NCBI GenBank assembly: GCA_964016885.1 | Contig: OZ024754.1 | Location: 22,134,001-22,198,000 of the forward strand | DNA length: 64,000 bases | Direction of reading: 5' to 3' | Source of the DNA: Eledone cirrhosa | Lineage: Eukaryota | In this document: in pieces, positions 10,183 through 46,530 of the stretch | Layout of the letters: the number at the start of each line of letters is the position of its first letter | Numbering within the stretch: position 1 is the first letter of the stretch | Made by a program: the position numbers and the translations under genes | Notes under the pieces: model-generated | Database searches by the model: none | What the model was told of the DNA's origin: nothing | What the model saw: the letters and a program-made list of their open reading frames with translations, nothing else

Positions 10183-10235
<53 letters not shown>

Positions 10236-12965: not shown

Positions 12966-13010
12966 AATATTGCTGATGAGATGTAACAACATCGAAACTA
13001 GTTCAATATT
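12966..13010 (+). ncRNA. Type I hammerhead ribozyme
   Basis: Identical to 11102-11146. Confidence 0.9.
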
Positions 13011-13302: not shown

Positions 13303-13380
<78 letters not shown>

Positions 13381-19757: not shown

Positions 19758-19845
<88 letters not shown>

Positions 19846-19849
19846 TATA

Positions 19850-20358: not shown

Positions 20359-20406
<48 letters not shown>

Positions 20407-21190
20407 AGGAAGGAAGAACGTGACCGTTGTTTTCAAATATTAAGTCAAATAGAAGTGACCAATTAAATACCATGAAATGTTTTTAATATCTTTTGTATTT
20501 GGTTATGTTTAAGCTAATTATTCTAATATATTATATCAAAATTAAACAATATAAAAATATTTTCTATAATAATCAGAAGCATAGTTTAATTAATATATTT
20601 CTTAAATATTTTGTTACAAAATTCAAAAACATTTTTATTTATAAAGCAAGTTTAAATACCTATTAAATATGTATAAGGATATTTACCACAACTTATGCGT
20701 ATATCACCATCAGTATATACATTTTATATAATGTTTAGAATTATTATCTGAATTATTCTTTTTTCATTATAAAAACAGTTCAATTCATTAGTTGTCATTT
20801 ACTTACAGGATTAATAAGTAGTTATATTTACTCTTAAAAGTATTATTATTTCGATTTTACTTCTGTAACTACATCTTAATACATGTAGTTTCCCTTTAAG
20901 GATTTTTCGTATATTATTAAACTGTATAAATCATGTTAAATATACATTATTAATCCATTTTGATAGAACGAAAATTATTTACGAAGGATGTAAACAAAGG
21001 AAGATAATCCGTACAACTTATGTGATCATTTATATTATCTAAGTGCTTTGAAAGCCAAAAGATATTTCAAACCACAAATTCAGAAATTTCTAGTTATACA
21101 ATGACCATTCTAAATCCTACTGAGTCACATCATGAGATTAATTTACTGTGTAAAAACGATATACAATTTTTAAGTTAAGGCAAAACATTA
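19850..21190 (-). mobile_element. Inverted copy of the P4 3' UTR/pLTR with decayed HHR (19927-19987)
   Basis: Reverse complement aligns with 44886-45890; HHR core mutated to CTGATAG. Confidence 0.8.
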
Positions 21191-21192
21191 TA

Positions 21193-21252
<60 letters not shown>

Positions 21253-21254
<2 letters not shown>

Positions 21255-22193
21255 TTTCTTTATTAACCACAAGGGTTTACATAAAGTAGACATTAAGGAC
21301 AGTGCAGGACAATGCAGGACGGTACAAATGGGCATTTCTGCGTGTAAAAAAAACAAAAACAGAGGATGTAACAAAAATAACAATGAAAATAACAATGAAA
21401 AATTCCCCAATAGGGGGGAGACTTCGGAGGGACATTTGTGGAGAAAGCCCAGTAAAAAGCCACAATGACCCTGACCACCAAGGCAAGTGCCCTCTCCCAG
21501 TTTTCCACCTTTAGTTTACAGATATATACTCAGAGTCGGCCCATTCACTCGGGCCATTCTTGCTTCTCTCACCCATCTTTCAACAAAATGCTGGGAAGAG
21601 AGCACTTCCCTCTCTACTCTGATTTTCCTTTTCAAATGAAATTTGAAAAAGTCAATCAGAGCATCACCGAAGAGGTAAGTGCTCGTCTTCAGCCCTTTCA
21701 AACGTGTCCACCATACTATCTCTTTCGCCATGGCCACCAGACAGATAAAAACTGCCTGCCCTTCCCGGCTAAAGGAGGAGGGCGGGGCAATCCTCACGAT
21801 AGACTCAGATGATAGCTGGATCCGTCCTAAACGCGACAGCATGTGTTCGACATAAACCCACAAGTCAGCAATTTTCGGACACTGGACGAGTGCGTGCAGG
21901 ACGGTTTCGTCGCCCTGCGCGCATCTCGGACATGCCCGGCTGACGGCACCTCCATGCCTGTAGAGTTTATCCCGAACTGGCAAGGCTCCTCGGTAGCACT
22001 GCCAGGCCAGAGATTTCTGGAAGCGCTCACAGCCCTCGACCAATCGGGCAATGTGATCGGTGGAAACTCCACCTCGGCGTTCTATAGAGGATTAGTGGAG
22101 GGGAAGAGCGACGACGTACTTGGGGAAACTCTAGGCGTCGACGAAAATCAACTAGCCAATCTCTTCGGAAGAACTTTCGGGCCAGGGCCTATG
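21253..22193 (-). mobile_element. Tx1/L1-like element A, 5'-truncated and 5'-inverted copy
   Basis: 21253-22023 is nearly identical to 24707-25475; 22023-22193 is the reverse complement of ~25482-25651; (TAA)n on both sides. Confidence 0.9.
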
Positions 22194-22211
22194 AATAATA
22201 ATAATAATAAT

Positions 22212-24657
22212 AACCAGAAGATGCTGTTTGGACAGCTTGAGGGGAAAGAAAGAGGCAACGACTTGATCCCTGGGGCGGAACAAACTAAAACATTCTGGAG
22301 AGGAATATGGGAGCAGGATGTTAGACATAATGACCAGGCAGGGTGGATTGAGACAGTACAGAGGGAGATCGGTGAGCAGGCACACCAACAAACTGATTTG
22401 AGTATCACAGTTGAAACTCTTAAGGGGCAGGCCAAAAAACTAACCAACTGGAAATCACCAGGCCCAGATGGTGTGCAGGGGTATTGGATTAAAAATATAA
22501 CATCCCTCCACCCGAAACTGACAGCCATGTTCAATGACTACTTGGTGTCGGGTGAGGTGCCAGAGTGGTTGTCAAAAGATACCACAGTTCTGATAATAAA
22601 AGACCGAATCAAGGGTAATGATGTTACCAACTATAGCCCTATCACATGTCTGTCCGTAATGTGGAAACTGTTGACGAGCATTGTGTCTGAGGAAATCTAC
22701 CATCACCTCCACACAAACAACTTGTTACCGGACGAACAGAAAGGATGCCGAAAGAAGTCACGTGGTACAAAGGACTAGTTACTTATTGATAAGATGGTAA
22801 TGGGGAATTGCAGGAGGAGACACACTGGTCTTGCCATGGGATGGATAGACTACAGAAAAGCATTTGACATGGTGCCTCATTCTTGGATCACCAAAAGCCT
22901 GGAGATCTTCAAGGTGGCAGATAACATCAGACAGTTGCTGGGCAGGAGTATGGGGTCCTGGGAGACAGAGTTGACATCAACTGGAGAATCCTTGGGAAGC
23001 GTGAAGATCAAGATAGGTATCTTCCAGGGAGATAGCCTGTCCCCTCTGTTGTTTGTCCTTGCCCTGATGCCCTTGACCATTATGCTGCGAAAAGTGAGAG
23101 CAGGATACAAGTTGGGAAAGGGAGAGCTTACTATCAGTCACCTCCTCTTCATGGACGATCTTAAGCTCTTCGGGAAGAGTGAGAAGGAGTTGGATGTGCT
23201 TGTTGACACTGTCCGTATTTTCAGCAGTGATATATGTATGCAGTTTGGTATTAGTAAGTGTGGAGTCATTGTGATGAGGAGGGGTAGGTTGAGCAGAAGT
23301 AACGGAATCCAGATACCAACAGGTGAGATGATAAAGGGAATTGACTCTGAGGAAGGATACAAGTATTTGGGCGTTCTGGAGGCTGATGGCATAAAGAACA
23401 AAAAAATGAAGGAATTGTTAAGAACTGAATACATTCGGAGAGTAAGGAGCGTATTGAAGTCACATCTGAACAGCAGAAATGCCATAAGCGCAGTAAATTC
23501 TCGAGCTGTGTCTATTATTAGGTACAGTGCGGGAATTCTGAGATGGAATGTTGCTGAACAAAAAGAAATGGATAGGAAGACTAGGAAGCTATTGACTATC
23601 TACAACATGTTCCACAAGAGGAGTGATGTCGATAGAGATCTAAGGAGATCTGAGGGTGGAAGAGGTCTTATCAGCATAGAGGACTGTGTTCAGATGGAGA
23701 AAAACAACCTATACAAATACGTGACTGATAGTAAGGAGCCAATGCTCAGAACTGTACTGAAGGAGGGGACAATAGGCCAGGGGATGTCCAAGGAGGAAAT
23801 AACATCAAGGAGAAAGAGCAGCCTTCAGGGAAAATCCCTTCATAGTACCTTCTTTGAGAAAACTGAATTTAGAGATCCACAGACATGGAACTGGTTGAGA
23901 AGAGGAGACCTCAAAAAGGCTACAGAAGGAATGTTAATGGCTGCGCAGGAGCAGGCCCTCAAAACGAAGTGGTTGAAACACCATATTTACAAGGAGGAGG
24001 CTAGCCCACTGTGCAGGATCTGTGGAGAGAGAGAGGAGACTGTGGCTCACATTGTATCCGAGTGTAAACACCTAGCCCAGACCCACTATAAGGGCTGGAG
24101 ACATGATGTGATGGGCAGGGTGATCCACTGGCACCTGTGCAAAGTAAACAATTTACCACATTCTGAGAAATGGTATGAGCATAGGCCAGAGGCGGTGATG
24201 GAGAACGATCAGGTGAAGGTGCTGTGGGATTTTAGGATACAGACGGACAAGAAACTGGAACACAATAGACCTGACCTGGTGGTTGTGGACAAAGAAAAAA
24301 GATCGTGTCTGATTGTGGATGTGGCCTGCCCATTCGACACGAGAGTGCAAGAGAAGGAGAGGGAGAAAATTAACCGATACCAGAACTTAAAGTGGGAGGT
24401 AAAAAGGATTTGGAAATGCCATGAAGTCAAAGTGATCCTGGTTGTCATAGGCGCACTGGGGACTATCTCCAAAGGTTTCCAGGGATGGTTAAAGAAAATC
24501 GGCCCCCTCACGCTTTTTGGAACGCTTCAAAAGGCATGCTTGCTGGGAACAGCAAGAACCCTCCGATACGTCCTGAATATCTGAGGCTGCAGGTAGTGGC
24601 TTGATATTCATTCCAACAGACTTTCCAGTTAACCAACATCAATGACTGAGATTCAAG

Positions 24658-24660
<3 letters not shown>
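22212..24660 (+). mobile_element. R4/Dong-like RLE non-LTR retrotransposon, family B, 5'-truncated
   Basis: KSPGPDG, GIFQGDSLSP, FMDD, CRICGEREETVAHIVSEC, RHD, RPDLVVVD...LIVD...EK..RY (PD-D/ExK); TAG at 22776; (TAA)n tail. Confidence 0.9.
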
Positions 24661-24708
<48 letters not shown>

Positions 24709-24968
24709 TTTCTTTATTAACCACAAGGGTTTACATAAAGTAGACATTAAGGACAGTGCAGGACAATGCAGGACGGTACAAATGGGCATTTCTGCGTGTA
24801 AAAAAACAAAAACAGAGGATGTAACAAAAATAACAATGAAAATAACAATGAAAAATTCCCCAATAGGGGGGAGACTTCGGAGGGACATTTGTGGAGAAAG
24901 CCCAGTAAAAAGCCACAATGACCCTGACCACCAAGGCAAGTGCCCTCTCCCAGTTTTCCACCTTTAGT

Positions 24969-27900
24969 TTACAGATATATACTCAGAGTCGGCCCATTCA
25001 CTCGGGCCATTCTTGCTTCTCTCACCCATCTTTCAACAAAATGCTGGGAAGAGAGCACTTCCTTCTCTACTCTGATTTTCCTTTTCAAATGAAATTTGAA
25101 AAAGTCAATCAGAGCATCACCGAAGAGGTAAGTGCTCGTCTTCAGCCCTTTCAAACGTGTCCACCATACTATCTCTTTCGCCATGGCCACCAGACAGATA
25201 AAAACTGCCTGCCCTTCCCGGCTAAAGGAGGAGGGCGGGGCAATCCTCACGATAGACTCAGATGATAGCTGGATCCGTCCTAAACGCGACAGCAGGTGTT
25301 CGACATAAACCCACAAGTCAGCAATTTTCGGACACTGGACGAGTGCGTGCAGGACGGTTTCGTCGCCCTGCGCGCATCTCGGACATGCCCGGCTGACGGC
25401 ACCTCCATGCCTGTAGAGTTTATCCCGAACTGGCAAGGCTCCTCGGTAGCACTGCCAGGCCAGAGATTTCTGGAAGTTGTCCATAGGCCCTGGCCCGAAA
25501 GTTCTTCCGAAGAGATTGGCTAGTTGATTTTCGTCGACGCCTAGAGTTTCCCCAAGTACGTCGTCGCTCTTCCCCTCCACTAATCCTCTATAGAACGCCG
25601 AGGTGGAGTTTCCACCGATCACATTGCCCGATTGGTCGAGGGCTGTGAGCGCCTGAAGACATTCCAGTCTCCAGGCGCTCCCTCTCGGTCTTCGCTTGAC
25701 CCAGGACTGCAGCTCCGTCAAGGAAACGAGCTGGGGAAAAACGCGTCTAGCAAACGGCGACCACACCTGATCACCGTCGAGGAAGAGGTGGAGATGTCGT
25801 AGCCTGAGCGCGTGCCTGCGCATCATCAGCCACGGCATGCCCAGCCCTCCACGTAGCGGGTGTTGACAACAGATGGACCGCCTGACCATCGGAGCACGTC
25901 CCTTCCACAAAAAGCGAAAGAGCAAACGCTCCAGCGCAGTCAGGCGAGGCTTAGGACAAGTTACGACGGTTAGGCGGTAGCAGATGACAGACGCGATGTA
26001 CGCGTTAGCCACCTCCGCTCGACCTTTCAGGGATAGCTTCCTCTCCGCCCATTTCTGGGTGAGAGAAGCCACCCTGCTCGTCACCTCGTCCCAGTTTTTG
26101 TCCGTCTGGAGGTCCGGACCGAACCAGACCCCTAGCAATTTAACCGGTCCGTCCGTCCAGCGCCCGACGACGCTGTTGGACGGCATGGACCTGCCTCTCC
26201 AGGTGCCGAGCTGCAGGCCCACTGACTTTTCCTGGTTGATCATTGCTCCTGTCACCGCTTCGTATTCTCTTAGTGTAGTGCCGATCGCCTCGATGTGTTT
26301 GGCGTTCGACACCACTACGGTGACATCGTCCGCATATGCTGACACGGATCTTCCGCATCCTAGTTCGCGCGGGACTCCCCTCAACGTCTCCAGTTTGTGC
26401 AGTAATGGCTCGAGAGTCAATACGTACAAGAGGGACGAGAGGGGACATCCTTGGCGGACCGAGCGCATGATGTTGAACGGTTCCGACAGGTGACCGTTCA
26501 CTCTCACCACAGAGCAGATGTCGCTGTGCATGGCAGCGATCCAGCCTCTGAAGACGGGCCCAAAGCCAGCCGCCCTCAGGACTGCCGCTAGGTAACGATG
26601 GTCGACCCTATCGAAAGCTTTCGACTGATCTAAATTGATCAAGGACCCACCCGTGCCAGGTTCCCTAGCCACCCTCTCTACGATGTATCGCATGAGGTGG
26701 AGGTTGTCGTGGATGGATCTGTCGGGAATGGCGCATGTCTGCGCCTCTCCCACCAGACCACCAACGACAAGCGCCAACCTCTTTGCTAGCACCTTGGCCA
26801 AAATCTTAAACTCTGTGTTTAGCAGAGTTATGGGCCGGAAATTGTCTATGTTATCCCCCTTGTTCGGATCCTTTCTCAGCAGTGCCACCGCACCTCGGCT
26901 CACAGAACTGGGAATTCTCCCGTTCTGTTGCCAGTTGCAGTAGACGTCCGCCAAGAGGCCTCCGAACAAGTCTGGCATCTGTACGTAAAGTTCATAGGGC
27001 AGACCATCCAAACCAGGCGATTTACCCCTTGTGCAGCCAGTCATTGCCTCCCGTACTTCAGCGGCTGTTATCGGCTTTTCGCAACACCTCGCCTCAGTGG
27101 CCGAGAGCCGCGGCAGTCCGTCGAGGTAGACACTAAAGTCCATCCCTCTAGCCGGCCCCCCGCTGCCCCCGAACAGCTGAGCGAAGTGTCGCTGAAAAGC
27201 TTCACACATTTGCCCGGGATCGAGTAGCATGCGCCCGTCGTGGTCCACCAAAGACCGGATCGTGGCTTTGTTGCCACGACGCGCCTCCGCCACTCGGGCC
27301 CATTGAACGGCTTTCGTCCCCTCGTGTCTGAGAGCACGCACTCTAGCTCTGACAACGCAGCCTTCGTGCTTTGCATTGAAGAATTGGTCAAGGGCCAATT
27401 TCGCCGCAAGCACGTCGGTCGCAATGCCTTTGCTAAGCGCCTCGTCTAATTTTCTAACTAGTTCTCCCTCTGCTCTATTTTTCTCTATTGCTAAAGCCTT
27501 ACTAAACCTAATCGATTCTATTCTAATCGCTCTTTTCAGAGCAAACCACCACTTGTTGTTGACGATGGCCCCCGTCAACGCCCGCTTAACTAGTTCGCTA
27601 ATCCGGTCTCTGTAGGCCTTGCGCGCTGGTAAGGACGCGTTTAGCTTCCAGTAGCCGGGTCCTCGTCTATGAAGCCTATCTAAGTCAAGCACACAGATCA
27701 CGAATTTGTGGTCCGTGTAGCTGACTATCTTGAATTGTGGACAGCCTATGCTAGACCTATCTATTTCCCTACAAAATACTCTATCTAGATATGATCTGGA
27801 TGACCCTATGCGGTTTGTCCAAGTCCACATTGGCACATTCGGGAAATCCAATCGGTACCTGTCAGACAGTTCAAAACGCCTGAGCAGGTTGGTGAGGCTC

Positions 27901-28388
27901 TTGCACCCTCCACCCCTATCCGCTAATCCCACACAGTCCCAGCGTGCATCTAAGATCCCGTTCCAGTCGCCCACTAACACTAAAGAGCGGGACGTTCCAA
28001 GAAAGGTCTCCAGACGCCGGAAGAAATCAGGCCGCCCTGCTCCTGTCGGGGCATAGACGGCCACTAGCCTGAAAGCTTGCCCGTCTCCGCTGGTCACGTC
28101 CAGCACCACCAGCTTACCCTCTGGGTCCAGGAAGATGGCCCGTATGGCGAGATCCAAACCTCTCCGAAAAAGCACAGCAACTCCTCCACCCGATCCAGGA
28201 CGGCTGGGAGATGCGTACACATCGTAGCCGCCGAAGATCGGTACGAAGGCCCGTGCTTCGGAGATTCTGGTCTCGCTGATGGCCACTACATCTATGTTTA
28301 GTGACCTGAGGTCGTTGAGCAGGTGACCCTGCTTCCATGACGACCCCAAGCCACGCGCATTTATGCTGCCTATTCTGAGTGAGGTCAT
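24969..28388 (-). CDS. ORF2: APE endonuclease - reverse transcriptase - C-terminal zinc finger (Tx1-like)
   Basis: GSINARGL, SETR, GDWN, YTDHK (APE); KSPGLDG, QGCPLS, YADD (RT); CPRC...ETVLHALVQC; 1139 aa uninterrupted. Confidence 0.95.
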   Translation of the reverse strand: MTSLRIGSINARGLGSSWKQGHLLNDLRSLNIDVVAISETRISEARAFVPIFGGYDVYASPSRPGSGGGVAVLFRRGLDLAIRAIFLDPEGKLVVLDVTSGDGQAFRLVAVYAPTGAGRPDFFRRLETFLGTSRSLVLVGDWNGILDARWDCVGLADRGGGCKSLTNLLRRFELSDRYRLDFPNVPMWTWTNRIGSSRSYLDRVFCREIDRSSIGCPQFKIVSYTDHKFVICVLDLDRLHRRGPGYWKLNASLPARKAYRDRISELVKRALTGAIVNNKWWFALKRAIRIESIRFSKALAIEKNRAEGELVRKLDEALSKGIATDVLAAKLALDQFFNAKHEGCVVRARVRALRHEGTKAVQWARVAEARRGNKATIRSLVDHDGRMLLDPGQMCEAFQRHFAQLFGGSGGPARGMDFSVYLDGLPRLSATEARCCEKPITAAEVREAMTGCTRGKSPGLDGLPYELYVQMPDLFGGLLADVYCNWQQNGRIPSSVSRGAVALLRKDPNKGDNIDNFRPITLLNTEFKILAKVLAKRLALVVGGLVGEAQTCAIPDRSIHDNLHLMRYIVERVAREPGTGGSLINLDQSKAFDRVDHRYLAAVLRAAGFGPVFRGWIAAMHSDICSVVRVNGHLSEPFNIMRSVRQGCPLSSLLYVLTLEPLLHKLETLRGVPRELGCGRSVSAYADDVTVVVSNAKHIEAIGTTLREYEAVTGAMINQEKSVGLQLGTWRGRSMPSNSVVGRWTDGPVKLLGVWFGPDLQTDKNWDEVTSRVASLTQKWAERKLSLKGRAEVANAYIASVICYRLTVVTCPKPRLTALERLLFRFLWKGRAPMVRRSICCQHPLRGGLGMPWLMMRRHALRLRHLHLFLDGDQVWSPFARRVFPQLVSLTELQSWVKRRPRGSAWRLECLQALTALDQSGNVIGGNSTSAFYRGLVEGKSDDVLGETLGVDENQLANLFGRTFGPGPMDNFQKSLAWQCYRGALPVRDKLYRHGGAVSRACPRCAQGDETVLHALVQCPKIADLWVYVEHLLSRLGRIQLSSESIVRIAPPSSFSREGQAVFICLVAMAKEIVWWTRLKGLKTSTYLFGDALIDFFKFHLKRKIRVEKEVLSSQHFVERWVREARMARVNGPTLSIYL

Positions 28389-28423
28389 GTTTAAAATAGA
28401 GTGGAAAAGATGGGAAAGACCAC

Positions 28424-30553
28424 TTACCGTACTTTTGGTAGAGGAGGGATGGTTTTTACATCCCTTTTCACTTGATCGTCTGGTGAAGGGACCGTTGAAT
28501 CGTCCCTTCGGCTGGTCGTCGGCTCTTCTAAGAGAATGTCTGAGTATACTCTTCGATTGATGGTTCCTCCTAGGTCCCTGAAATCACCAACTGCGTTGGG
28601 GAATTTCGTTTTAATGTTTGTGTATTGTTTCTGTGCTATTTTTAGCAGTCTTATGTTAGTTGGCGTTTTGATTGGTGCTGGTATTATGTAGTCCTGTTGT
28701 GAAATGTCTGTGTGTTCAATTATGTAAGTCATTAGTTTCTTGTTGTGTGTATTTATTGCCGTGCATTTGTTTTTCTGGGGGTGGGTTGTGGTTCTGCTAT
28801 TTTCTTGTCGTTGTTGCTGGGTGTGTGTGTTTTGTTGTTGTGTTTGCGATGTTGGTGCTTGTGGTGGTGGTGTTGAAGGTGTTGTTGGCGGTGGGGTTGT
28901 CGCCGGTGGTGATGGTGGTGCTAGTGTGGGTGGTGATGGTGTTGGTGTTGTTGCTGCTGTGGGTCTCTTTGCAGTAGACTTTACCCTTTTCTCATTTCTT
29001 TCCTCCCCTTTCAAAGGTGACGATGCGCTGCTTCTGCGTTTGTGCCTTCTTGCGACCTTTTGCCATCCCTCTCCCACCTCACACTCCATGTCTGATTCTG
29101 TGAGGTCGGGGAGGGGTACCAGCTCCACTCTTTCACTTGTTGTTGTTGGTGATGTTTGCACTGGAGTCTCTGTTGCAGCTGCATTTGGTATTGCTGTTGT
29201 TGTTGTTAATATTTTCACTGCTGCTGCTGTCTTTGATTTCCGTGGAGTGGGTATGGGTGCCACGGACCTATCGTTCCTGGTTGCCGCTTGTCCTGTTGCT
29301 GGTAGCCGTGAAGCCGGATTCGGAAGGAGGGGGGTTTTCTCCTTTCTCAGGGTCTTCTCGTTGCAGAAGGCCCTGAGGTGAGTCTTCGATCCACAGCGAA
29401 AGCATTTCGGGCGTTTGCCCTCAACACTTATGGGCAGTTGAGTGCCGTTATCGAAGTCTATCACATCCGGGATAGCTTCGATGCACTCCTGGTTGGTTTG
29501 GATTAGCATCTCAATGGAGGAGCCGACCCAATCTTCTCTTACTTTTTTCTGTACTTGCAGTACAGTTGTTTTGTCCTCGATTCCGACGAGGACAGACGCG
29601 GCCAGCCAAGAAGGGGTCATTCCGGGGGGGACGTGGGTCAGTTTGACCCTCACAATTTTTTGCCCGCAGTAGGAGGGCACCAACACCATTTCCTCGCTCC
29701 TTAGGGTCACTACTGATTGGGCCTTTGCCTCCTGGGGTGTGGCAAAAAGTACGTCTACGGTGGCGTATTTTTTGCCTCGGGTGATGTGCGTTTTCCTCTG
29801 CCACACAGACCCCAAGGCTTTTTGTATTTGGGCCTCTGTGGCTCTTTCCACCCTACGGGATTTTGTACTTACTGTACGGTACGTGACCGTACAGTGCTCT
29901 TGGGTCTCGAAAAACTTTTCCGCTGCCTTGCAGATTGCTCGGTGTCCGTTCTTTGTCACCATCTTCTTCGCTTCCTCTAATTCCTCATTTGTTATGAGGA
30001 TTGTTTCCAAGTTTTTCGCAATACCTGCAAATGAGATTGGTTTTTCTCTGCTGTTGTTGTTGTCGTCAGAGCTGCTGGTACTTTTGTTGTTGCTGCAGGT
30101 ACTACGACTACTGCCTCCGCCGCTGTTGCTGTGGTTGTTGTTGGTGTTGCTGCTGCTAATGCTGTTGTTGTTTATGTTGCTGGTGATGCTGTTGCGGCTG
30201 CTACTGTTGTTTTCATTGTCACTGTTGCTGTTGTTATTACGGCTGCTACTGCTATTATTCCTGACGTCAGACGAATGAACTGGGTTTTCGTATTTCCCGC
30301 ACACCTGTTTCGTCGCTGTCGTCGTCGTCGTGGAGAAACCTTGCACGCTTTGCACGAGACTTTTCTTTTCTTTCGTTGCTTGCGAAAGAGAAGGGAGGGA
30401 GAGAGACACATTTAAAGAAGGGAGGGAGAGAGACAATCTTCTCTCTGCTGTAGTGATGATTGAGGAAGAAGACGGAATGAGTGGGAGTGACGTATGAAAT
30501 TTCTTTTTCGTAGCCATGTTGTTTTTTTGTTTAAAATGAAATTTTGGGTACAA
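28424..30553 (-). CDS. ORF1: nucleic-acid-binding protein with CCHC knuckle (true start may be MATKK near 30518)
   Basis: RPKCFRCGSKTHLRAFC; Asn/Ser- and Pro/Thr-rich regions; lies 35 bp upstream of ORF2. Confidence 0.85.
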   Translation of the reverse strand: MYPKFHFKQKNNMATKKKFHTSLPLIPSSSSIITTAERRLSLSLPSLNVSLSLPSLSQATKEKKSLVQSVQGFSTTTTTATKQVCGKYENPVHSSDVRNNSSSSRNNNSNSDNENNSSSRNSITSNINNNSISSSNTNNNHSNSGGGSSRSTCSNNKSTSSSDDNNNSREKPISFAGIAKNLETILITNEELEEAKKMVTKNGHRAICKAAEKFFETQEHCTVTYRTVSTKSRRVERATEAQIQKALGSVWQRKTHITRGKKYATVDVLFATPQEAKAQSVVTLRSEEMVLVPSYCGQKIVRVKLTHVPPGMTPSWLAASVLVGIEDKTTVLQVQKKVREDWVGSSIEMLIQTNQECIEAIPDVIDFDNGTQLPISVEGKRPKCFRCGSKTHLRAFCNEKTLRKEKTPLLPNPASRLPATGQAATRNDRSVAPIPTPRKSKTAAAVKILTTTTAIPNAAATETPVQTSPTTTSERVELVPLPDLTESDMECEVGEGWQKVARRHKRRSSASSPLKGEERNEKRVKSTAKRPTAATTPTPSPPTLAPPSPPATTPPPTTPSTPPPQAPTSQTQQQNTHTQQQRQENSRTTTHPQKNKCTAINTHNKKLMTYIIEHTDISQQDYIIPAPIKTPTNIRLLKIAQKQYTNIKTKFPNAVGDFRDLGGTINRRVYSDILLEEPTTSRRDDSTVPSPDDQVKRDVKTIPPLPKVR

Positions 30554-30733
30554 AACCCCAATAACTGGTTATTTAACCCCGAAGGGCCAAATAACGGGCA
30601 GAAAGACCCCTCTCACGAGGAGGAGGGTGTCTTTATCAACAATTATGTTCAAGTTTTAAACAATTTACAATTGTTTTAACGGTTAAAAATTACTATACCT
30701 TACAGAGCCGAGCCTCCGTCAACCATGGCATTC

Positions 30734-30787
<54 letters not shown>

Positions 30788-33500: not shown

Positions 33501-33501
<1 letters not shown>
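30788..33501 (+). mobile_element. R4/Dong-like RLE element, family C, 5'-truncated, one frameshift (~32385)
   Basis: KSPGKD, GIFQGDSLSP, YMDD, CRVCKKQPETIDHIISMC, RHD, RPDIILKD...LLID...EKLSKY; (TAA)n tail. Confidence 0.9.
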
Positions 33502-33576
<75 letters not shown>

Positions 33577-33853
33577 GGACCTAAAGTGGGAGGTGAAAAG
33601 GATTTGGAACTGCCATGAAGTCAAAGTGATCCCGATTGTCATAGGCGCACTGGGGACTAACTCCAAAAGTTTCCAGGGATGGTTAAAGAAAATCGGCCCC
33701 TTCACGCTTTTTGGAACGCTTCAAAAGGCATGCTTGCTTGGAACAGCAAGAACCCTCCGATACGTCCTGAATATCTGAGGCTGCAGGTAGTGGCTTGATA
33801 TTCATTCCAACGGACTTTCCAGTTAACCAACATCAATGACTGAGATTCAAGGA
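33577..33853 (+). mobile_element. Family B 3'-terminal fragment
   Basis: Matches ~24383-24660; (TAA)n both sides. Confidence 0.9.
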
Positions 33854-33861
33854 ATAACAAC

Positions 33862-33914
<53 letters not shown>

Positions 33915-33916
<2 letters not shown>

Positions 33917-35029
33917 GCTAACAGCTCATGAGACTCTGTGAAGGCATTTTTCCAAAAGTTTTGTATTTTGTCTTTTCCTGGGGATTTCCATTTGCTGGTT
34001 TTTCTTAGAGTCAAGCGCAACTGTTCAACTGTTATATTTTCCCATATTTGTTCCTCAAGGTGAGCTGTATCTTTCATTTATCTGTCTATCCATGGGGCAT
34101 GTATGTTATGAACTTTTTCTTCGGCAAGAAAAGCCTCTGTATGGAAAATACCCAGAGCGAACTAACAATCCTGATGTTGACAAAACTTTAACCCATCAGT
34201 GGTTGGCATCCTCTGGACTGAAATCGGAGACTGAAGGACTGATTATATCAGCACAAGATCAGTGTCTGCCAACAAAAAATTACCAAGCCAACATAATAAA
34301 AAATGGATGCAGCCCATTATGACGTGTATGCAAAAAACAACCAGAGACCATTGACCATATAATTTCAATGTGCAGTCCTATAGCTCCAACCGAATACCTA
34401 AACAGGCATGACAGAGCTGCACAATACATACATTGGATAATGTGTAAGCATTTTGACCTGCCCCATCAAAAGAATTGGTGGGAGCATCAACCACCTCCCA
34501 TACTTGAAAAAGATCACATCTCAATCTTGTGGAACTTTAGCATCCAAACAGACCGAAAAATAGATGCAAATAGACCTGATATAATATTGAAGGACTTTAA
34601 AAAGAGGGTATGCCTGCTAATTGATATGTATGTTCCAATAGACAAGAATGTATCTATAAAAACATTTGAAAAATTGAGCAAGTATAATGACCTGGAGATA
34701 GAAATTGGAAAAATGTGGAAATTGAGAACTAAAACAATACCAGTGGTTGTAGGCGCTCTGGGAATGATACCTAAGGGGTCTAATGATTACTTATCGCAAA
34801 TCCCAGGAAACCCGCGTATAGGAGAAATACAAAAGATAGTACTAATGGGAACTGCCCATATACTAAGGAAGATTCTGTCAATATAAGTACATCACAAGTC
34901 TAAACACTAAAGATGCATGTGTGAGTATGTATGTTCTTTCTTGAACATGGCGGACCTTGTTGTCTCTTGAGGTCACTGGTTGTGACTTGGTGATAACTGG
35001 TATGAACATAAAGCAAGATAAATGCAACT

Positions 35030-35030
<1 letters not shown>
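33915..35030 (+). mobile_element. Family C copy with 5' inversion and deletion
   Basis: 33915-34125 is the reverse complement of ~30974-31183; 34123-35030 matches 32594-33501. Confidence 0.9.
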
Positions 35031-35096
<66 letters not shown>

Positions 35097-35097
<1 letters not shown>

Positions 35098-38000
35098 CAG
35101 ACGGACAGAGAAGGGAAGGGAAAAACTAAGTCAGACATTCAAACACTACATTACAATGAAACTTATGCTTATTCATTTTTGGGGTTTTTTCTGCCTGTTT
35201 GTTTGTTTATTTGTGTTCGTCTACAGCGTGATAATGCCACACAAAAGTCACGTGGAGTGACGAAACCACCGGAGACGATGAATTCACCGGTGGTTATGTA
35301 ACCATACATTCGCCAATCCTCGATAAGAGTGCTTAAATGTCGAACCTAAACAGTTCGAATAACGGTGAAATGGAGACTAGAATGTCATGTGACGGACTCT
35401 CACCCAACAGGCTGTCAACCAAATACTGCTGGTGTCGGAGGAAGAAGAAGAAGGAAAAGGACCAGAACCAACTGGACGAAAAAATTGAATAGAACTGTTA
35501 TGCAATGTTACCTGAAGAGTAACCCCAAGGAGAAAGGCTATAGGAAACGGATGCATAACATCTGGAACGAGATTGGTCTATTTAAATTAGATGAACAAAA
35601 ATTGGCCGGGCAGGCTCGGGTAATAAGAACTAATGGGTGGATAAGCGAGCTGGAACTGGAGGAACTGAGCAGAGAGATTAGCTTGGAGATGGAGAGTGGA
35701 GTATGCCAGGCAAACGAGCCAGTGGGAAATGAAGGTGAAGAGGTCGAGAGAACGGAGGAACCACCCGAAGCAGACAATGATCTGAATTCTAAGATAAATA
35801 GTACCTGGAACAGAGATACGGCCACTGAGGAGATGAATGCTGACGGGCTAGGACAAGATTTGGTTGATATCCTAAACTTAGTGGTAGATGAATTGAACAA
35901 TGATAGTGGGAGACCTATGAACCTAAGATTTGTAGACAGGAAAAAGTTAAAAGAAACAACAGCTAAGGTAAACAAAGTCATCCCATACCTTGAGGCGAAG
36001 AGCCTTCACCAGTGCAACAATATCCTCAAAGCAACAGCAAATACGGTGAGGAAACTACTTGGTATAAAAGCGAGAGGAAACAACAGACAAGAAAGAGCAG
36101 AGCCTTGGTGGAAGAAACGACTGAGTGGTCAAATCAGGGAAATGAGAAATGACATTGGAAAGCTTGAGTCCCTACTGAATGGGACACTAAAAAACATAGA
36201 CACTAAAAATAGACTGGAAATAAAGTACAAAACTAGGAGGAAAAAGCTAAATATTATCATAGAGGAACTGAAGCAACGCATTGTAGCAAAGAGTGCAAAA
36301 ATCAGGCGATACGAGAACGGAGTCAGTCAGTATATACAGAACCGCATGTTCGACAACAACCAGAAGATGTTGTTTGGACAGCTTGAAGGGAAAGAAAGAG
36401 GCAACGACTTGATCCCTGAGGCGGAACAAACTAAAACATTCTGGATAGGAATATGGGAGCAGGATGTTAAACATAATGACCAGGCAGTGTGGATTGAGAC
36501 AGTACAGAAGGAGATCAGTGAACAGGCACACCAACAAACTGATTTGAGTATCACAGTTGAAACTCTTAAGGGGCAGGCCAAAAAACTAACCAACTGGAAA
36601 TCACCAGGCCCAGATGGTGTGCAGGGGTATTGGATAAAAAATATAACATCCCTCCACCCGAAACTGACAACCATGTTCAATGACTGCTTGATGTCAGGTG
36701 AGGTACCAGAGTGGTTGACAAAAGGTACCACAGTTTTGATAATGAAAGACCGAATCAAGGGTAATGATGTTACCAACTATAGACCTATCACATGTCTGTC
36801 CGTAATGTGGAAACTGTTGACAAGCATTATGTCTGAGGAAATCTACCATCACCTCCACACAAACAACTTGTTACCGGACGAACAGAAAGGATGCCGAAAG
36901 AAGTCACGTGGTACAAAGGACCAGTTACTTATTGATAAGATGGTAATGAGGAATTGCAAGAGGAGACACAGTGGTCTTGCCATGGGATGGATAGACTACA
37001 AAAAGGCATTTGACAGGGTGCCTCATTCTTGGATCACCAAAAACCTGGAGATCTTCAAGGTGGCAGATAACATCAGACAGTTGTTGGGCAAAAGTATGAA
37101 GTCCTGGGAAACAGAGTTAAACATCAACTGGAGAATCCTTGGGAAGCGTGAAGATCAAGAGAGGTATATTCCAGGGAGATAGTCTGTCCCCTCTGTTGTT
37201 TGTCCTTGCCCTGATGCCCCTGACCAGTGTACTGCGAAAAGTGAGAGCAGGATACGGGTTGGGAAAGGGAGGGCTTACCATCAATCACCTCCTCTTCATG
37301 GACGATCTTAAGCTCTTCGGGAAGAGTGAGAAGGAGTTGGATGTGCTTGTTGACACTGTCCGTATTTTCAGCAATGATATATGTATGCAATTTGGTATTA
37401 GTAAGTGTGGAGTCATTGTGATGAGGAAGGGCAAGTTGAGCAGAAGTAACGGAATCCAGATACCAACAGGTGAGATGATAAAGGAAATTGACTCTGAGGA
37501 AGGATACAAGTATTTGGGCGTTCTGGAGGCTGATGACATCAAGAACAAAAAAAAATGAAGGAATTGATAAGAACTGAATACCTTCGGAGAGTAAGGAGCG
37601 TATTAAAGTCACATCTGAACAGTAGGAATGCCATAAGTGCAGTAAATTCCCGAGCTGTGTCAATTATTAGGTACAGTGCAGGAATTCTGAGATGGAATGT
37701 TGCTGAACAAAAAGAAGTGGATAGGAAGACTAGGAAGCTATTGACTATCTACAACATGTTCCACAAGAGGAGTGATGTCGATAGACTCTACTTAAGGAGA
37801 TCTGAGGGTGGAAGAGGTCTTATCAGCATAGAGGACTGTGTTCAGATGGAGAAAAACAACCTACACAAATACGTGACTGATAGTAAGGAGCCAATGCTCA
37901 GAACTGTACTGAAGGAGGGGACAATAGGCCAGGGGATGTCCAAGGAGGAAATAACATCAAGGAGAAAGAGCAGCCTTCAGGAAAAATCCCTTCATAGTAC

Positions 38001-38590
38001 CTTCTTTGAGAGAACTGAGTTTAGAGATCCACAGACATGGAACTGGTTGAAAAGAGGAGACCTTAAAAAGGCTACAGAAGGAATGTTAATGGCTGCGCAG
38101 GAGCAGGCCCTCAAAACGAAGTGGTTGAAACACCACATTTACAAGGAGGAGGCTAGCCCACTGTGCAGGATCTGTGGAGAGAGAGGAGACTGTGGCTCAC
38201 ATTGTATCCGAGTGTAAACACCTAGCCCAGACCCACTATAAGGGCTGGAGACATGATGTGATGGGCAGGGTGATCCACTGGCAACTGTGCAAAGTAAACA
38301 ATTTACCACATTCTGAGAAATGGTATGAGCGTAAGCCAGAGGCGGTGATGGAGAACAATCAGGTGAAGGTGCTGTGGGATTTTAGGATACAGACGGACAA
38401 GAAACTGGAACACAATAGACCTGACCTGGTGGTTGTGGACAAAGAAAAAAGATCGTGCCTGATTGTGGATGTGGCCTGCCCATTCGACACGAGAGTGCAA
38501 GAGAAGGAGAGGGAGAAAATTAACCGATACCAGGACTTAAAGTGGGAGGTAAAAAGGATATGGAACTGCCATGAAGTCAAAGTGATCCCG
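35097..38590 (+). mobile_element. Family B near-full-length copy (frameshifted, 3' end deleted)
   Basis: N-terminal R4/Dong-type NWTKKLNRTVMQCY...GYRKRM...EQKLAGQAR; RT and RLE split across 35365-37182, 37139-37558, 37555-38217, 38174-38599. Confidence 0.9.
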
Positions 38591-41500
38591 TGCCTGTAGA
38601 GCTTATCTCGAACCGGCAGCGCTTCCCGGTAGCACTGCCAGGCCATGGATTTTTGGAAGTTATCCATAGGCCCCGGGCTGAAAGTTCTCCGAAAGAGAGC
38701 AAACAGCTGATCTTCTTCGACGCCCAGGATCTCTCCGAGAATGTCGTCGCTCCCCCCCCCTAGTCCTCTATAGAACGCCGAGGTGGATGTTCCACCGATA
38801 CTGGTGCCCAGCTAGGAGAGGGCAGTGAGCGCCTGGAGACATTCCAGTTTCCAAGCGCTATCCCTCGGTCTTTTTCTGACCCAGGACTGCAGCTCTGGAC
38901 GTGTCTGGTGCTCGACACCACCACGGTGACGTCGTCAGCGTAAGCCGACTCGGATTTCCCGCATCCTAATTCGCGTGGGACGCCCCTCATCGCCCCCAGT
39001 TTGTGCAGTAACGGCTCGTGAGCCAATACGTACAAGAGGGACGAGAGGGGACAGCCCTGGCGGACTGAGCGCATGATGCTGAACGGCTGCGACAGGTAAC
39101 CGTTCACTCTCACAACTGAGTAGATGTCGCTGTAGATTGCTGCGATCCAACCCCTGAAAACGGGCCCGAAACCGGCTGCCTCGAGGACCGCTGCCAGGTA
39201 CCGATGGTCGACCTTATCGAATGCTTTGGATTGATCCAAGTTGATCAGGGCCCCACTCTTGCCAGGTTCCTTAACCACCCTCTCTATGATGTATCGCATG
39301 AGGTGGAGGTTGTCGTGTATGGATCTGTCCGGAATGGCGCATGTATGCGCCTCTCCCACCAGACCCTTGACGACAAGCGCCAACCTCGTTGCTAACACCT
39401 TGGCCAAAATGTTGAACTCTGCGTTTAGCAGGGTTATGGGCCTGAAATTATCGATAACATCCCCCTTGTTCGGGTCTTTTCTCAGCAGCACCACTGCTCC
39501 CCGGCTCACAAAACTGGGAATGCTCCCGTTCTGCTGCCAGTTGCAGTAGACGTCTGCCAAAAGGTCACCGAACAAGTCTGGCATAAATGCATAAAGCTCG
39601 TAGGGCAGACCATCTAAACCTGGCGATTTACCCCTCGTGCAGTTAGCCATCGCTTCTCGTATTTCACCGGCTGTTATTGGCTTTTCGCAACACTGTGCTG
39701 CGGTCGTCGAGAGCCGAGGCAGTCCGTCGAGGTATGCACTGAAGTCCATGCCCCGATCCGGGCCGCCACCGCTCCCGAACAGTTCAGCAAAGTGCTGCTG
39801 AAAAGCTTCACACATCCGCTCGGGTTCGAGCATCACGCACCCGTTTTGGTCAGACAAAGACCGAATTGTGGCTTTGTTGCCACGTCGCGCCTCTGCCCAT
39901 TGGACGGATATTGTCCCCTCGTGTTTCAGAGCACGCGCTCTAGCTCTGACAACGCAGCCTTCGTGTTTTGCGTTGAAGAATTGGTCGAGTGCCAATCTCG
40001 CCACAAGCACGTCGGTTGCGATGCCTGTCCTAAACGCCTCTTCTAGCTTTCTGACTAGCTCTCCCTCTACTCTATTTCCTCTATCACTACTCCTTTGCTA
40101 AACCTAATCGACTCTACTTTAATTGCCCTTTTCAGGGCGAACCACCACCTGTTGTTGACGACCGCTCCCGTCAACGCCCGCTTAACTAATACGCTAATCC
40201 GGTCTCTGTAGGCTTTGCGCGCCGGGAAAGACGCGTTCAGCTTCCAGTAACCAGGCCCTTGTCTATGAAGTCTGTCTATGTCGATCTCACAGATCACAGA
40301 TGTGTGGTCTGTGTAGTCGACTATTTTAAATTGTGGACAACTTATACTAGCCTTATCTAGTTCTCTGCAGAATACCCTATCGAGATACGATCTGGATGAC
40401 CCGATGCGGTTTGTCCATGTCCACATTGGGACATTCGGGTGATCCAGTCGATACCTGTCAGACAGTTCAAAACGTCTAAGCAGGTTGGTGAGGCTCTTGC
40501 ACCCTCCTCTCCTATCCACTAGCCCCACACGATCCCAGCGTGCATCCAAGATACCGTTCCAGTCGCCCACTAACACTAAAGAGCGGGACGTTCCAAGAAA
40601 GGTCTCTAGACGTCTGAAGAAATCTGGCCGTCCTGCCCCTGTTGGGGCGTAGACGGCTACTAGCCTGAAAGCATTGCCTTCGCTGCCGGTCACGTCCAGC
40701 ACCACCGACTTACCTTCTGGGTCCAGGAAGATGGCCCGTATCGCGAGATCCAAGCCTCTCCAAAAAAATGACGGCAACCCCTCCCCCCGATCCTGGACGG
40801 CTGGGAGATGCGTATACATCGTAGCCGCCGAAGATCGGTGCGAAGGCTTGTGCTTCGGAGATTCTGGTTTCACTGATGGCCACCACATCTATGTTTAGTG
40901 ACCTGAGGTCATTGAGCAGGTAACCCTGCTTCCAAGATGATCCCAGGCCACGTGCATTTATACTGCCTATTCTGAGTACAGCCATGTTGGATGAGAAACG
41001 GGGCAAGTGAGAAAGGGTCACTTACCTTGTTCGTGTGGTGAAGGGACAATAGAACCGTCCCTTTCGCTGGTCATGGGTGTTTCCAAGAGGATGTTAGTGT
41101 ATATCCTCTTGGTAACCGACCCTCTGAAGTCTCCAACTGCGTTGGGGAATTTTTGTTTTAAAGGTTTGTACTGTTCTATTGAGAGTTCGATGATGCTTAT
41201 GTTTGTCGGGAGAGTTCTTGGTGTTGGTGGGTGTAGTAGTTTTTTTCTGTGATGTCTGTGTGCTGCTTTATATATTGTATGAGTTCTTTTTTTGCCATGT
41301 TTATGGCTGTGTACTTTTTGGCGGGAGGGGTGATTTTGTTGCTGTTTTCTTCTTGTTGCTGTTTGGTGTGTGTGTCTTGTTGTGTTTGCGTTGTTGGTGT
41401 TTGTGGTGGTGATGGTGGTGGTGTTGCTGCAAGTTTCCTTGCTGCCTTTACCCCTCTTTGTATGCCTTCGCTTTTGGAGGGTGAATCTAAGGGTTTTTTT

Positions 41501-43306
41501 GTTTTTTGTTTTTTATGGCAGACCGTTTGCCACTTCACTCCCGCCTCAAACTCCATGTCGGATTCTGTGGCGTCTGGGAGGGGTATGTGCTCCACGGCTA
41601 TTGGTGGTGGTAGTGGAGCCCTCTTCGACAATTTTGTTGCTGGTGTAGCTACTTCAAATGGAGCTATTGGTGTTGCCGCTACTGATGCTGCTGCTTTAGT
41701 TGTCCGTGGCCTTGGTACGGGTGCTACGGACGTTGCTCTCCTACTCACCGTGGAAGGGGCTTCTTCGTTTGTTGCCTGCCCTGCTCTTGGTAGCAGCGGA
41801 CCAGGTATTGGAAGGAGATGGGCCTTCTTCGCTGTCTTCTGCGGGCAAAAGGCCCTGGGGTGACCCTTCGACCCACAGAGATAACATTTTGGTCGTCTTC
41901 CTTCTACACTTATAGGGAGTTGGAGTCCTTCTTCGATGTCTATGATATCGGGGATAGCGTCGATACATTCCTGGTCAGTTTGTATAAGCATTTGCATGCC
42001 TATACCTGACCAGTTCTCTCTCCCTATTTTTTCTACTTGCAGCATGGTCGCCCTGTTCTCGATTCCAGCAAGGACAGACGCGACCAGCCAAGGTATGGGC
42101 ACGTCGGGTAGGACCTGTGTCACTTTGACCCTCACAATTTTCTGCCCGCAGTAGGAAGGCACCAAGACTATCTCCTCACTCTTTAGGGTTTCCAAAGAGT
42201 GAGACTTTGCTTCCTGGGGGGGGGGGGAAGTACATCTACTGTGGCGTACTTTCTGCCTCGGGTGATGTGGGTTTTGCGTGCCCAGACGCACCCTAAGGCC
42301 TTTTGGATATGAGCCTCCGTGGCTCTCTCCACTCGATGTGAGATTTTGCTTACGGTGCGGTAAGTCACCGTCCGTAGCTGCTGGTCCTTGAAAAAATCGG
42401 GTGGAGGTTTCAGGGAAACTCTACTTGCGCTTCTTGCCACCATGGCCCTTGCGACTGCCATCTCCTCCTCTGTGACTAACACTGTCTCGATATTTCGGGC
42501 GACACCTGCAAAAGAAGTGGTCCCTTTTTCAGCAGCACCACTACTGCTGCCGCTACTGGTCTTGCTGGTGGTGCTGAGATCGCTATTACAGGTATCGGTG
42601 TCATTGTTGTTGTTTTCGTTGGTACAGTTGTTGGTGTTGTTGTTTTCGTTGATACTGTTGCTGTTGTTACTGTTATTGTGGCTATTGTTATTATTGTTGT
42701 TTTTGTTGATACTGTTCCTACTATTATTGTTGTTGTGGTTGTTGTTATTATCATTGTTATTGTCGTTCTCGACTTTACCGCTGTTATTTTTGTTATTGTC
42801 GTTCTCGACCTTACCGCTGTTATTTTTGTTTTTGTCGTTCTCGACTTTACCGCTGTTATTTTTGTTGTTGCTGTTGTTATTGATGGTGTTGTTGTTGGTG
42901 TTGTTGTTGGTTTGTTTGTGTTAGAAATATTTGTTAATTTTAAATCTGTAACAATCTTTTTTTCCTTTGTAATATTTTCGTTTATATTTACCTACGCTGG
43001 AACGCTGTCTTGTTGACATGCTGATAAAGTCTCCCTCTCTCTGTGTGTTGTCTGACAGCGCTCTCTCTCTTTCTTGTGTTATCCATGTTGAAATTTAAAA
43101 AAAATAAATATTTTTACACAAATACGAATACGAATACGACACCCCGTAAAGGGGTGCCGTATTATTTACTAGTGAACCCCTGTATTAGATGGGTCACTTC
43201 TTCTAAACTTTTATCAAATTTAAAACTTGAATAAAAGGTTTAGAACGGTTGAAAACGAGGTAAAACGTTGAAAAAAACTGGAGGCGATAAGAAGCGTGGC
43301 TCCACC
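38590..43306 (-). mobile_element. Tx1/L1-like element A2 (diverged subfamily), decayed, 3' end deleted
   Basis: Broken ORF2 (MAVLRIGSINARGL at ~40985; YADD) and ORF1 (RPKCYLCGSKGHPRAFC); 5' end abuts (CAA)/(TAA)n. Confidence 0.9.
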
Positions 43307-43315
43307 AACAACAAC

Positions 43316-43372
<57 letters not shown>

Positions 43373-43375
<3 letters not shown>

Positions 43376-44218
43376 TTTAACCCATCAGTGGTTGGCATCC
43401 TCTGGACTGAAATCGGAAACTGAAGGACTGATTATATCGGCACAAGATCAGTGTCTGCCAACAAAAAATTACCAAGCCAACATAATAAAAAATGGGTGCA
43501 GCCAATTATGCCGTGTATGCAAAAAACAACCAGAGACCATTGACCATATAATTTCAATGTGCAGTCCTATAGCTCCAACCGAATACCTAAACAGGCATGA
43601 CAGCGCTGCACAATACATACATTGGATAATGTGTAAGCATTTTGACCTGCCCCATCAAAAGAATTGGTGGGAGCATCAACCACCTCCCATACTTGAAAAA
43701 GATCATATCTCAATCTTGTGGAACTTTAGCATCCAAACAGACCGAAAAATAGATGCAAACAGACCTGATATAATATTGAAAGACTTTCAAAAGAGGGTAT
43801 GCCTGCTAATTGATATGTATGTTCCAATAGACAAGAATGTATCTATAAAAACATTTGAAAAATTGAGCAAGTATAAGGACCTGGAGATAGAAATTGGAAA
43901 AATGTGGAAATTGAGAACTAAAACAATACCAGTGGTTGTAGGCGCTCTGGGAATGATACCTAAGGGGTCTAATGATTACATATCGCAAATCCCAGGAAAC
44001 CCGCGTATAGGAGAAATACAAAAGATAGTACTAATGGGAACTGCCCATATACTAAGGAAGATTCTGTCAATATAAGTACATCACAAGTCTAAACACTAAA
44101 GATGCATGTGTGAATATGTATGTTCTTTCTTGAACATGGCGGACCTTGTTGTCTCTTGAGGTCACTGGTTGTGACTTGGTGATAACTCGTATGAACATAA
44201 AGCAAGATAAATGCAACT

Positions 44219-44219
<1 letters not shown>
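43373..44219 (+). mobile_element. Family C 3' fragment
   Basis: Matches ~32655-33501; (TAA)n both sides. Confidence 0.9.
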
Positions 44220-44259
<40 letters not shown>

Positions 44260-44261
<2 letters not shown>

Positions 44262-45890: not shown

Positions 45891-45906
45891 TATATATATG
45901 TATATA

Positions 45907-46530
<624 letters not shown>

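Follow-up and report, generated by a model that had tools for sequence, protein, structure and literature searches.

Dong elements and the microsatellite-specific families of the Tx1 clade are the described long interspersed nuclear elements (LINEs) closest to those found in a 64,000-nt stretch of the Eledone cirrhosa genome (assembly GCA_964016885.1, contig OZ024754.1, positions 22,134,001–22,198,000; hereafter the window), in which nine LINE copies of both kinds lie side by side, separated by (TAA)n tracts. Dong of Bombyx mori and DongBg of Biomphalaria have a single open reading frame (ORF) coding for a reverse transcriptase (RT), a CCHC finger, and a PD..D..K restriction-like endonuclease (RLE), and are flanked on either side by (TAA)n, which reads TAA along the sense strand upstream of the 5' end (PMC7998251, PMC3774820, PMC3812793). 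Insertion in (TAA)n is given for most insects, molluscs, and cnidarians (PMC7998251), and the TAA upstream of the 5' end was seen in primer design (PMC3774820); PMC3812793 places Dong among elements with an apurinic/apyrimidinic endonuclease (APE), in conflict with PMC7998251 and with the sequence described here, which are followed. The Tx1 families have two ORFs and an APE–RT protein, belong to the L1 group, and use simple repeats as targets, namely (TC)n in Kibi, (TTC)n in Koshi, (TTCC)n/(TTTC)n in crocodilians, and telomeric repeats in Tx1-1_ACar (PMC4494074, PMC3812793, PMC10088271). A LINE is regarded as sequence-specific when the same repeat flanks more than 20% of its copies genome-wide (PMC4494074). 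The initial annotation of the window had named both facts as established, the targeting of TAA repeats by R4/Dong-clade elements and the existence of microsatellite-specific Tx1 families; both are indeed published, the former with the same polarity as here (PMC7998251, PMC3774820; PMC4494074, PMC10088271).

Sharing of a target and growth of arrays are also known. SART and TRAS, two families residing in the telomeric repeats of Bombyx, insert oppositely oriented into a single simple repeat, where they build mixed arrays (PMC10088271). These two are APE elements of the R1 clade and their repeat is telomeric, while the present array combines RLE and APE elements in an interstitial microsatellite. 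The tandem arrays of R1 in Drosophila rDNA and of SINEU-3 grow by insertion into the target duplication of an earlier copy (PMC2718515, PMC4494074), but consist of one family in one orientation at a complex target, unlike the three to four families found here in a pure repeat. Unrelated endonuclease types meet on one multicopy target in the U2 snRNA genes, with Keno (APE) and Utopia (RLE), and in the 28S rDNA, with R1 (APE) and R2 (RLE) (PMC4494074, PMC4640811, PMC2718515). The members of these pairs cut different sites in the gene, whereas the partners in the array use one repeat. Moreover, Keno/Utopia and R1/R2 are oriented like the target gene.

The locus is read here as a single microsatellite that took up its LINEs by independent target-primed insertions. 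Priming is predicted to use the (TTA)n strand for the two Dong-like families and the (TAA)n strand for the Tx1-like family; the probability of this reading is put at about 0.7.

Organization of the array

Self-comparison, the ORF lists, and the sequence itself give nine LINE copies at 21253–44219, arranged from left to right as A1(-) B1(+) A-full(-) C1(+) B2(+) C2(+) B3(+) A2(-) C3(+) (Table 1), where A is an APE family and B and C are RLE families. Nine of the ten junctions, the two outer ones included, consist of (TAA)n, always with TAA on the + strand. The exception is B3/A2 (~38590), where B3 is short of ~220 nt and A2 of ~700 nt at their 3' ends, which fits the loss of the tract by a later deletion. 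All six RLE copies face + and all three APE copies face -, an outcome with a chance of 2/512 under random orientation. The initial annotation was right in the order, strands, and coordinates of the elements, in the rule that all junctions but one are (TAA)n, and in the polarity by clade; its term "nest" does not hold in the strict sense, since none of the nine copies is interrupted and all lie side by side between tracts.

The tracts sum to 159.5 units, with 25 in the longest, and take up 478 of 23,062 nt (2.1%) of the array. Outside it, the window has no TAA(+) tract of at least 4 units and one ATT tract of 4 units, and tblastn with the A, B, and C proteins found no additional copy elsewhere in the window. 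The 5' breakpoints are different in every copy, and the 3' junctions are constant within each family: TCAAGG followed by AAT in B (2/2 copies), CAACTG followed by TAA in C (3/3), and AATAAAGAAATC followed by ATT in A (2/2). The C copies differ from one another at 10–16 sites in 847 nt, and B1 differs from B3 at 94 sites in ~2.2 kb. Segmental duplication as the origin of the array was rejected, as self-comparison revealed no duplicated block of two or more elements.

Table 1. Tracts, LINE copies, and flanks of the array (positions in the window)
Feature	Position	Strand	Description
Left flank	19807..21199	-	inverted diverged copy of the right-flank Penelope-like 3' region; ends in (TA)n beside tract 1
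Tract 1	21200..21252	+	(TAA)n, 17.7 units; adjoins 3' end of A1
A1	21253..22193	-	5'-truncated family A; 171-nt 5' inversion, 5-nt deletion at the turn (twin-priming pattern)
Tract 2	22194..22213	+	(TAA)n, 6.7 units; head-to-head A1/B1
B1	22214..24658	+	5'-truncated R4/Dong-like LINE; RT, CCHC, PD..D..K endonuclease; in-frame TAG at 22776
Tract 3	24659..24706	+	(TAA)n, 16 units; tail-to-tail B1/A-full
A-full	24707..30733	-	6,027-nt L1-group (Tx1-like) LINE
Tract 4	30734..30787	+	(TAA)n, 18 units; head-to-head A-full/C1
C1	30788..33501	+	5'-truncated, second R4/Dong-like family; frame change near 32380
Tract 5	33502..33576	+	(TAA)n, 25 units
B2	33577..33852	+	276-nt family B 3' fragment; 96% to B1
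Tract 6	33853..33914	+	(TAA)n, 20.7 units; two AAC variants
C2	33915..35030	+	5'-truncated family C; 209-nt 5' inversion (33917–34125); 1.4-kb gap at the turn
Tract 7	35031..35096	+	(TAA)n, 22 units
B3	35097..38590	+	family B, 5' end near full length; frameshifted; last ~220 nt missing
A2	38591..43315	-	older family A subfamily with frameshifts; internal deletion of ~570 nt at 38895; lacks the last ~700 nt
Tract 8	43316..43374	+	(TAA)n, 19.7 units; head-to-head A2/C3
C3	43375..44219	+	~847-nt family C 3' fragment; 98–99% to C1, C2
Tract 9	44220..44260	+	(TAA)n, 13.7 units; poly-Asn in frame with the following N-rich linker and CNC..CPL motif
Right flank	44261..45937	+	decayed Penelope-like 3' end; GIY-YIG-like frame 44375–44779; ends in (TA)n

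The repeat as a probable target of family A

A repeat found beside a LINE may be its target or its tail. Within the window the ATT repeat abuts the 5' ends of all three A copies and both intact 3' ends, and lies on both sides of A1 and A-full. The tracts at the three head-to-head junctions A1/B1, A-full/C1, and A2/C3 (6.7, 18, and 19.7 units) can be supplied by no 3' tail of a neighbour, and the view of the tracts as mere 3' tails was rejected. Random insertion of A followed by entry of Dong into the A tail would leave TAA on the 3' side of A only, which is not what is seen, and three chance landings in tract DNA making up 2.1% of the array have a probability of ~1e-5. It is very likely that A targets (TAA)n at this locus.

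The structure of A1 points in the same direction. It consists of nt 5252–5082 of A-full, inverted, followed by nt 5258–6027, and the inversion begins at the repeat; for the deleted GACAA, pairing with an ATT primer is conceivable at four of five positions, one of them a wobble. The pattern is that of the twin-priming mechanism as described for L1, and since it starts at the repeat, the upstream repeat was likely already present at insertion. Twin priming is named in PMC6895275. Microhomology of 1–2 nt is found at the B1, B2, and C3 junctions.

Family A and its relatives

A-full has a 216-nt 5' untranslated region (UTR), ORF1 of 697 aa (30517–28424), and ORF2 of 1139 aa (28388–24969), both intact, and a 3' UTR passing directly into ATT repeats with no poly(A). 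ORF2 comprises an APE domain with its catalytic motifs, an RT, and a zinc finger (matches to Exo_endo_phos, RVT_1, and zf-RVT); its closest solved relative is L1 ORF2p (E 8e-52), with R2 at E 1e-21. The features of the L1 group, that is two ORFs, an N-terminal APE, an RT, and a C-terminal zinc finger, are all present. ORF1 carries a CCHC knuckle (CFRCGSKTHLRAFC), matches CCHC/ZCCHC3-type clusters of the Atlas at 0.90–0.93, and differs from the mammalian L1 ORF1p type. A CCHC-type ORF1 is a mark of the Tx1 clade, and on these sequence features family A is described as an L1-group, Tx1-like APE LINE, the RT tree holding no named Tx1 reference. A1 differs from A-full at three positions in 770 nt, and A2 shares 81% of nucleotides with A-full over ORF2, with an identical endonuclease loop, whose length equals that of the human L1 loop. 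The 5' UTRs of A-full (30520–30640) and A2 (43085–43200) are different sequences, each folding into two GC-rich hairpins just 5' of the ORF1 start.

A scan of genome contigs yielded the nearest relatives of A with DNA context, of ~41% protein identity, on contigs that look eukaryotic and belong to a GTDB record with the title uncultured Arenicella sp. They form pure head-to-tail arrays with a 6.4–6.8 kb period, comprising 61 copies on at least 16 contigs, in several subfamilies and with no spacer repeat; all 116 of 116 matches, from overlapping loci, lie on one strand. Truncated copies in these arrays join ~20 nt past the AATAAA of the preceding copy, and the relatives carry a hairpin similar to those in the 5' UTRs of A and A2. 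In an RT tree of 128 rows, A, A2, and P0001 group together (support 100) as sister to the tandem-array relatives (100), and a medaka protein and a U1-associated element lie near the A group. The loop in question sets the target specificity of an APE; in the tandem-array relatives it is 1–5 residues longer than in A.

The array-bearing contigs, CAXXMW0100000xx (loci L081–L123), appear to be eukaryotic host DNA binned as bacterial, and the pure arrays resemble a self-targeting or telomere-type LINE array. A further locus, L118 (9961–10137, 3036–3300), holds a 28%-identity APE LINE whose 3' end (AATAAA followed by an A-run) joins U1 snRNA at position 35, with an intact U1 gene upstream, again eukaryotic DNA in a bacterial bin. 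Its 5' side begins with what we take to be start fragments of histones H4 and H3, and the element is possibly a U1-targeting one of the Tx1 type.

Part of A-full is present in 20 of the 24 sequencing runs listed, from 16 studies, among which no RNA run is listed, so that they are uninformative on expression. Four runs were aligned to A-full extended by 18 nt of repeat per side, an alignment in which loose ends at the repeats were not retained. Run X1 gave 50,064 A-like contigs, 98 of them over the element ends (left and right pooled), and run X4 gave 27; of the 12.8 million reads in each of two raw Hi-C runs, 6 and 8, all poor, fell on A-full. The loose ends in the runs resemble diverged A relatives, and a single X1 contig joining 28606 to 30731 across 33 other letters is too little to use. 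A metagenome scan with A returned 80 loci, with identity of at most 34% throughout, and no match for A, B, or the 3' junction of A was found among viral contigs.

Families B and C

In both families the RT (RVT_1) is followed by a CCHC finger (CRICGEREETVAHIVSEC and CRVCKKQPETIDHIISMC) and an RPD..D..K endonuclease, with no APE, the build of R4/Dong elements; B aligns to the R2 endonuclease region. The two share 41–57% amino-acid identity, and B3 reaches residue 54 of a full-length relative, P0035. All six 5' ends and all five intact 3' ends of B and C abut (TAA)n, which reads TAA along the sense strand. At least 120 relatives are listed at 47–69% identity, none carrying a clade name. B and C are termed R4/Dong-like, as they match R4/Dong in build and target in a comparison containing no named R4/Dong reference. 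For Octopus vulgaris, recent activity of Dong-R4, L1-Tx1, and Penelope elements alike has been reported (PMC13282606, PMC8967140).

No essential difference from Dong was found. Pfam gave no match to a Myb/SANT-like domain in the N-terminal 333 aa of B3, the published domain having needed HHpred. The first 300 nt of B3 gave no match to a hepatitis delta virus (HDV)-like ribozyme with a simple home-made descriptor, used without a positive control on an element whose extreme 5' end may be absent, and Rfam found no ribozyme in the array. C2 consists of nt 396–188 of C1, inverted, followed by nt 1807–2714, with a repeated (re-primed) AACAGCT at the start. The inversion (33915–34125) is thus a twin-priming-like structure in an RLE copy; the literature checked describes twin priming for L1 only.

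Proposed origin and growth of the array

Target-primed reverse transcription starts from the target strand that is antisense to the element. It follows that the TTA strand would serve as primer for B and C and the TAA strand for A, and with a single starting tract such strand-specific priming fixes the polarity of each family, no further cause being needed. The strict polarity stressed in the initial annotation is real but no separate surprise, being the inevitable outcome whenever two strand-specific families occupy one tract. The intact APE domain of A is proposed to nick the TAA strand, with a T/A step as the possible site. The A transcript, with AATAAA situated 6 nt before the 3' end of the element, would be cleaved 10–30 nt past this signal, inside the tract, so that a few AUU units derived from the target would remain on it; such units could pair with the nicked strand, which would account for the missing poly(A). 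Each insertion would split the tract and duplicate a part of it, so that n insertions give n+1 targets and the array keeps growing. The seed was probably a linker in a decayed Penelope-like element, with Asn coded by (AAT)n, and the B3/A2 junction would have lost its tract by the later deletion mentioned above.

The sum of 159.5 units against 25 in the longest tract agrees with target regrowth, and the earlier claim that each insertion regenerates targets is borne out to the extent that the nine tracts fit it. The accompanying claim, that two unrelated endonucleases converge on one microsatellite and nick opposite strands, stands in part: the repeat is targeted by A here and the priming strands are opposite, though the selector of the site may be either the endonuclease or RNA–DNA pairing. 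Silencing by read-through of tail-to-tail pairs, also suggested there, is unsupported speculation; one such pair is left intact (B1/A-full), and its B1 has no 5' end.

The site and polarity of A might instead be set by its RNA, with a loosely AT-specific endonuclease and a 3' (AUU)n tail able to pair with whichever (AAT)n end has been nicked. The direct joining of AATAAAGAAATC to ATT repeats without poly(A) and the likeness in length between the A loop and the human L1 loop speak for this, and so does the importance of downstream target sequence on the RNA for R1Bm (PMC6895275); effects of the RNA tail on priming have also been proposed for RTE elements (PMC6007223). A nick inside the tract would still be required, however, and the loop, which A and A2 have in common at 81% overall likeness and which is longer in the tandem-array relatives, behaves as expected if it helps to choose the site. 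Selection by RNA pairing is considered unlikely, although it and the specificity of the A endonuclease can both contribute. A may also lack (TAA)n specificity genome-wide, having been primed at top-strand nicks made by the Dong-like endonucleases or re-inserted locally, in which case the opposite orientation would likewise be forced. Each A copy has a Dong-like neighbour, the relatives of A do without TAA, and A1 and A-full, with their three differences, have the same base at 10 of the 11 listed variant sites in the overlap where run depth partly or mostly differs, which fits local or very recent copying. Against this, A has an intact APE of its own, A2 as a separate older subfamily shows the same arrangement, and the runs are possibly of another species or population, so that the common bases may only mark a young subfamily; the explanation is held to be quite improbable.

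Two further explanations concern the assembly of the array from parts rather than the choice of target. Unequal exchange in the tract between alleles with different single insertions would build the array from families that are site-specific all the same; every joint is a perfect repeat able to recombine in register, and the B3/A2 deletion indicates that the locus has been rearranged. Such exchange is very improbable in view of the lack of a duplicated block of two or more elements and of the route described for R1 arrays (PMC2718515), namely serial insertion into regenerated targets. That dispersed copies were joined through TAA tracts by the assembler is hardly credible. It is true that no run record spans the region and that B3 and A2 have single-base homopolymer frameshifts, but the tracts are merely 20–75 nt long, the junctions bear signatures of insertion (the 1–2-nt microhomology at B1, B2, and C3, and two inversions starting at the repeat), a 99%-identical 466-nt tandem array is resolved in the same window, and a misjoin would still need TAA on the 5' side of A.

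Several points weigh against independent insertion by strand-specific families. The evidence consists of one locus with three A copies; target duplications are not measurable inside a pure repeat; tract length is not clearly different by junction class, and duplication, tail, and slippage are inseparable as sources of regrowth. From sequence alone, endonuclease specificity cannot be told from RNA pairing. The target is not conserved along the lineage, as no TAA/ATT tract of at least 4 units occurs in 39 loci of the A-relative arrays, and in all 127 loci retrieved the element sense strand is free of ATT tracts of at least 5 units, while two of them have a TAA tract of at least 5 units. The absence of TAA/ATT in the relatives, together with their longer loop, speaks for a recent switch rather than for conservation of an ATT target. 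Finally, the left flank does not correspond to the upstream part of the Penelope-like element, and with that half missing the account of the seed is incomplete.

A bolder version of strand-specific insertion would make A an active high-copy Tx1-type lineage that switched from self-targeted arrays to nicking of the TAA strand through a shortened loop and shares the Dong niche genome-wide, with the tracts as self-growing two-way LINE traps and convergent transcripts feeding small-RNA silencing; as a whole, it is doubtful. Other elements already provide published cases of shared targets, opposite polarity, and target regrowth. A possible novelty is the use of the Dong microsatellite from the opposite strand by a Tx1-like family whose sister lineage has a different target. 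The target of A, (ATT)n on the sense strand, would set it apart from the microsatellite-specific Tx1 LINEs described, and neither an (ATT)n/(TAA)n-specific APE element nor a mixed Dong/Tx1 array was found in the literature searched, though Repbase Reports or Figure 3 and the supplements of PMC4494074 may list one. If the specificity of A holds genome-wide, (ATT)n is added to the targets of APE-type LINEs, and A with the Dong-like families would form a natural APE/RLE pair reading one three-base repeat from opposite strands. The sister lineage with another target and a longer loop makes target change in an APE LINE testable, with the intact A-full as a reagent. For annotation, TAA microsatellites should be regarded as able to grow into LINE arrays of tens of kb.

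Flanks and the probable seed tract

The left flank matches 44882–45937 in blastn at 84% and 77%, that is, it is an inverted copy of the Penelope-like 3' region. The GIY-YIG-like frame of the right flank falls to a GIY-YIG cluster of the Atlas at 0.92, and phmmer with this frame gave 1,877 matches (best 1e-16), with a weak GIY-YIG Pfam match in two of the 12 scanned; Pfam on the flank itself gave no match. Homologues of the frame are linked to an RT, with RT-like YRDD or thumb motifs, and the RT is absent from the window copy. A separate search for homologues among longer proteins found none, whereas the phmmer search did find homologues. As the poly-Asn of tract 9 is in frame with the N-rich linker, the CNC..CPL motif, and the GIY-YIG-like frame, and the left flank is the same element, the seed tract probably, if tentatively, lay within a decayed Penelope-like element; the N-rich linker is present in two of 37 homologues of the frame. 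A hammerhead-like motif (CTGAnGA-stem-GAAA) occurs at 45757(+), with a variant at 19986(-) and no Rfam match. In all, four Penelope-type hammerhead-like motifs, at 18142(-), 19986(-), 45757(+), and 54176(-), are found in the window, each near a (TA)n run, and the Penelope-like family may favour or create (TA)n.

Other elements in the window

A 466-nt unit is repeated 5.2 times with 99% identity at 10228–13305, with an inverted block at 10228–10884 and diverged relatives at 54956–55774 and 62665–64000. The segment 46100–51271 has inverted repeats 46519–47062/49861–50404 (100%) and 46100–46516/50566–50979 (94%), between which lies a 651-aa frame, 48031–49986(-), with no Pfam match; judged by this structure, it looks like a young DNA transposon. 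A tRNA-like Rfam match of 44 bits at 5977–6047 is possibly the head of a tRNA-derived short interspersed element. At 56993–61208, 274-nt direct repeats (96%) surround RNase H-like and integrase matches (58935–60716), a remnant of a long terminal repeat retrotransposon.

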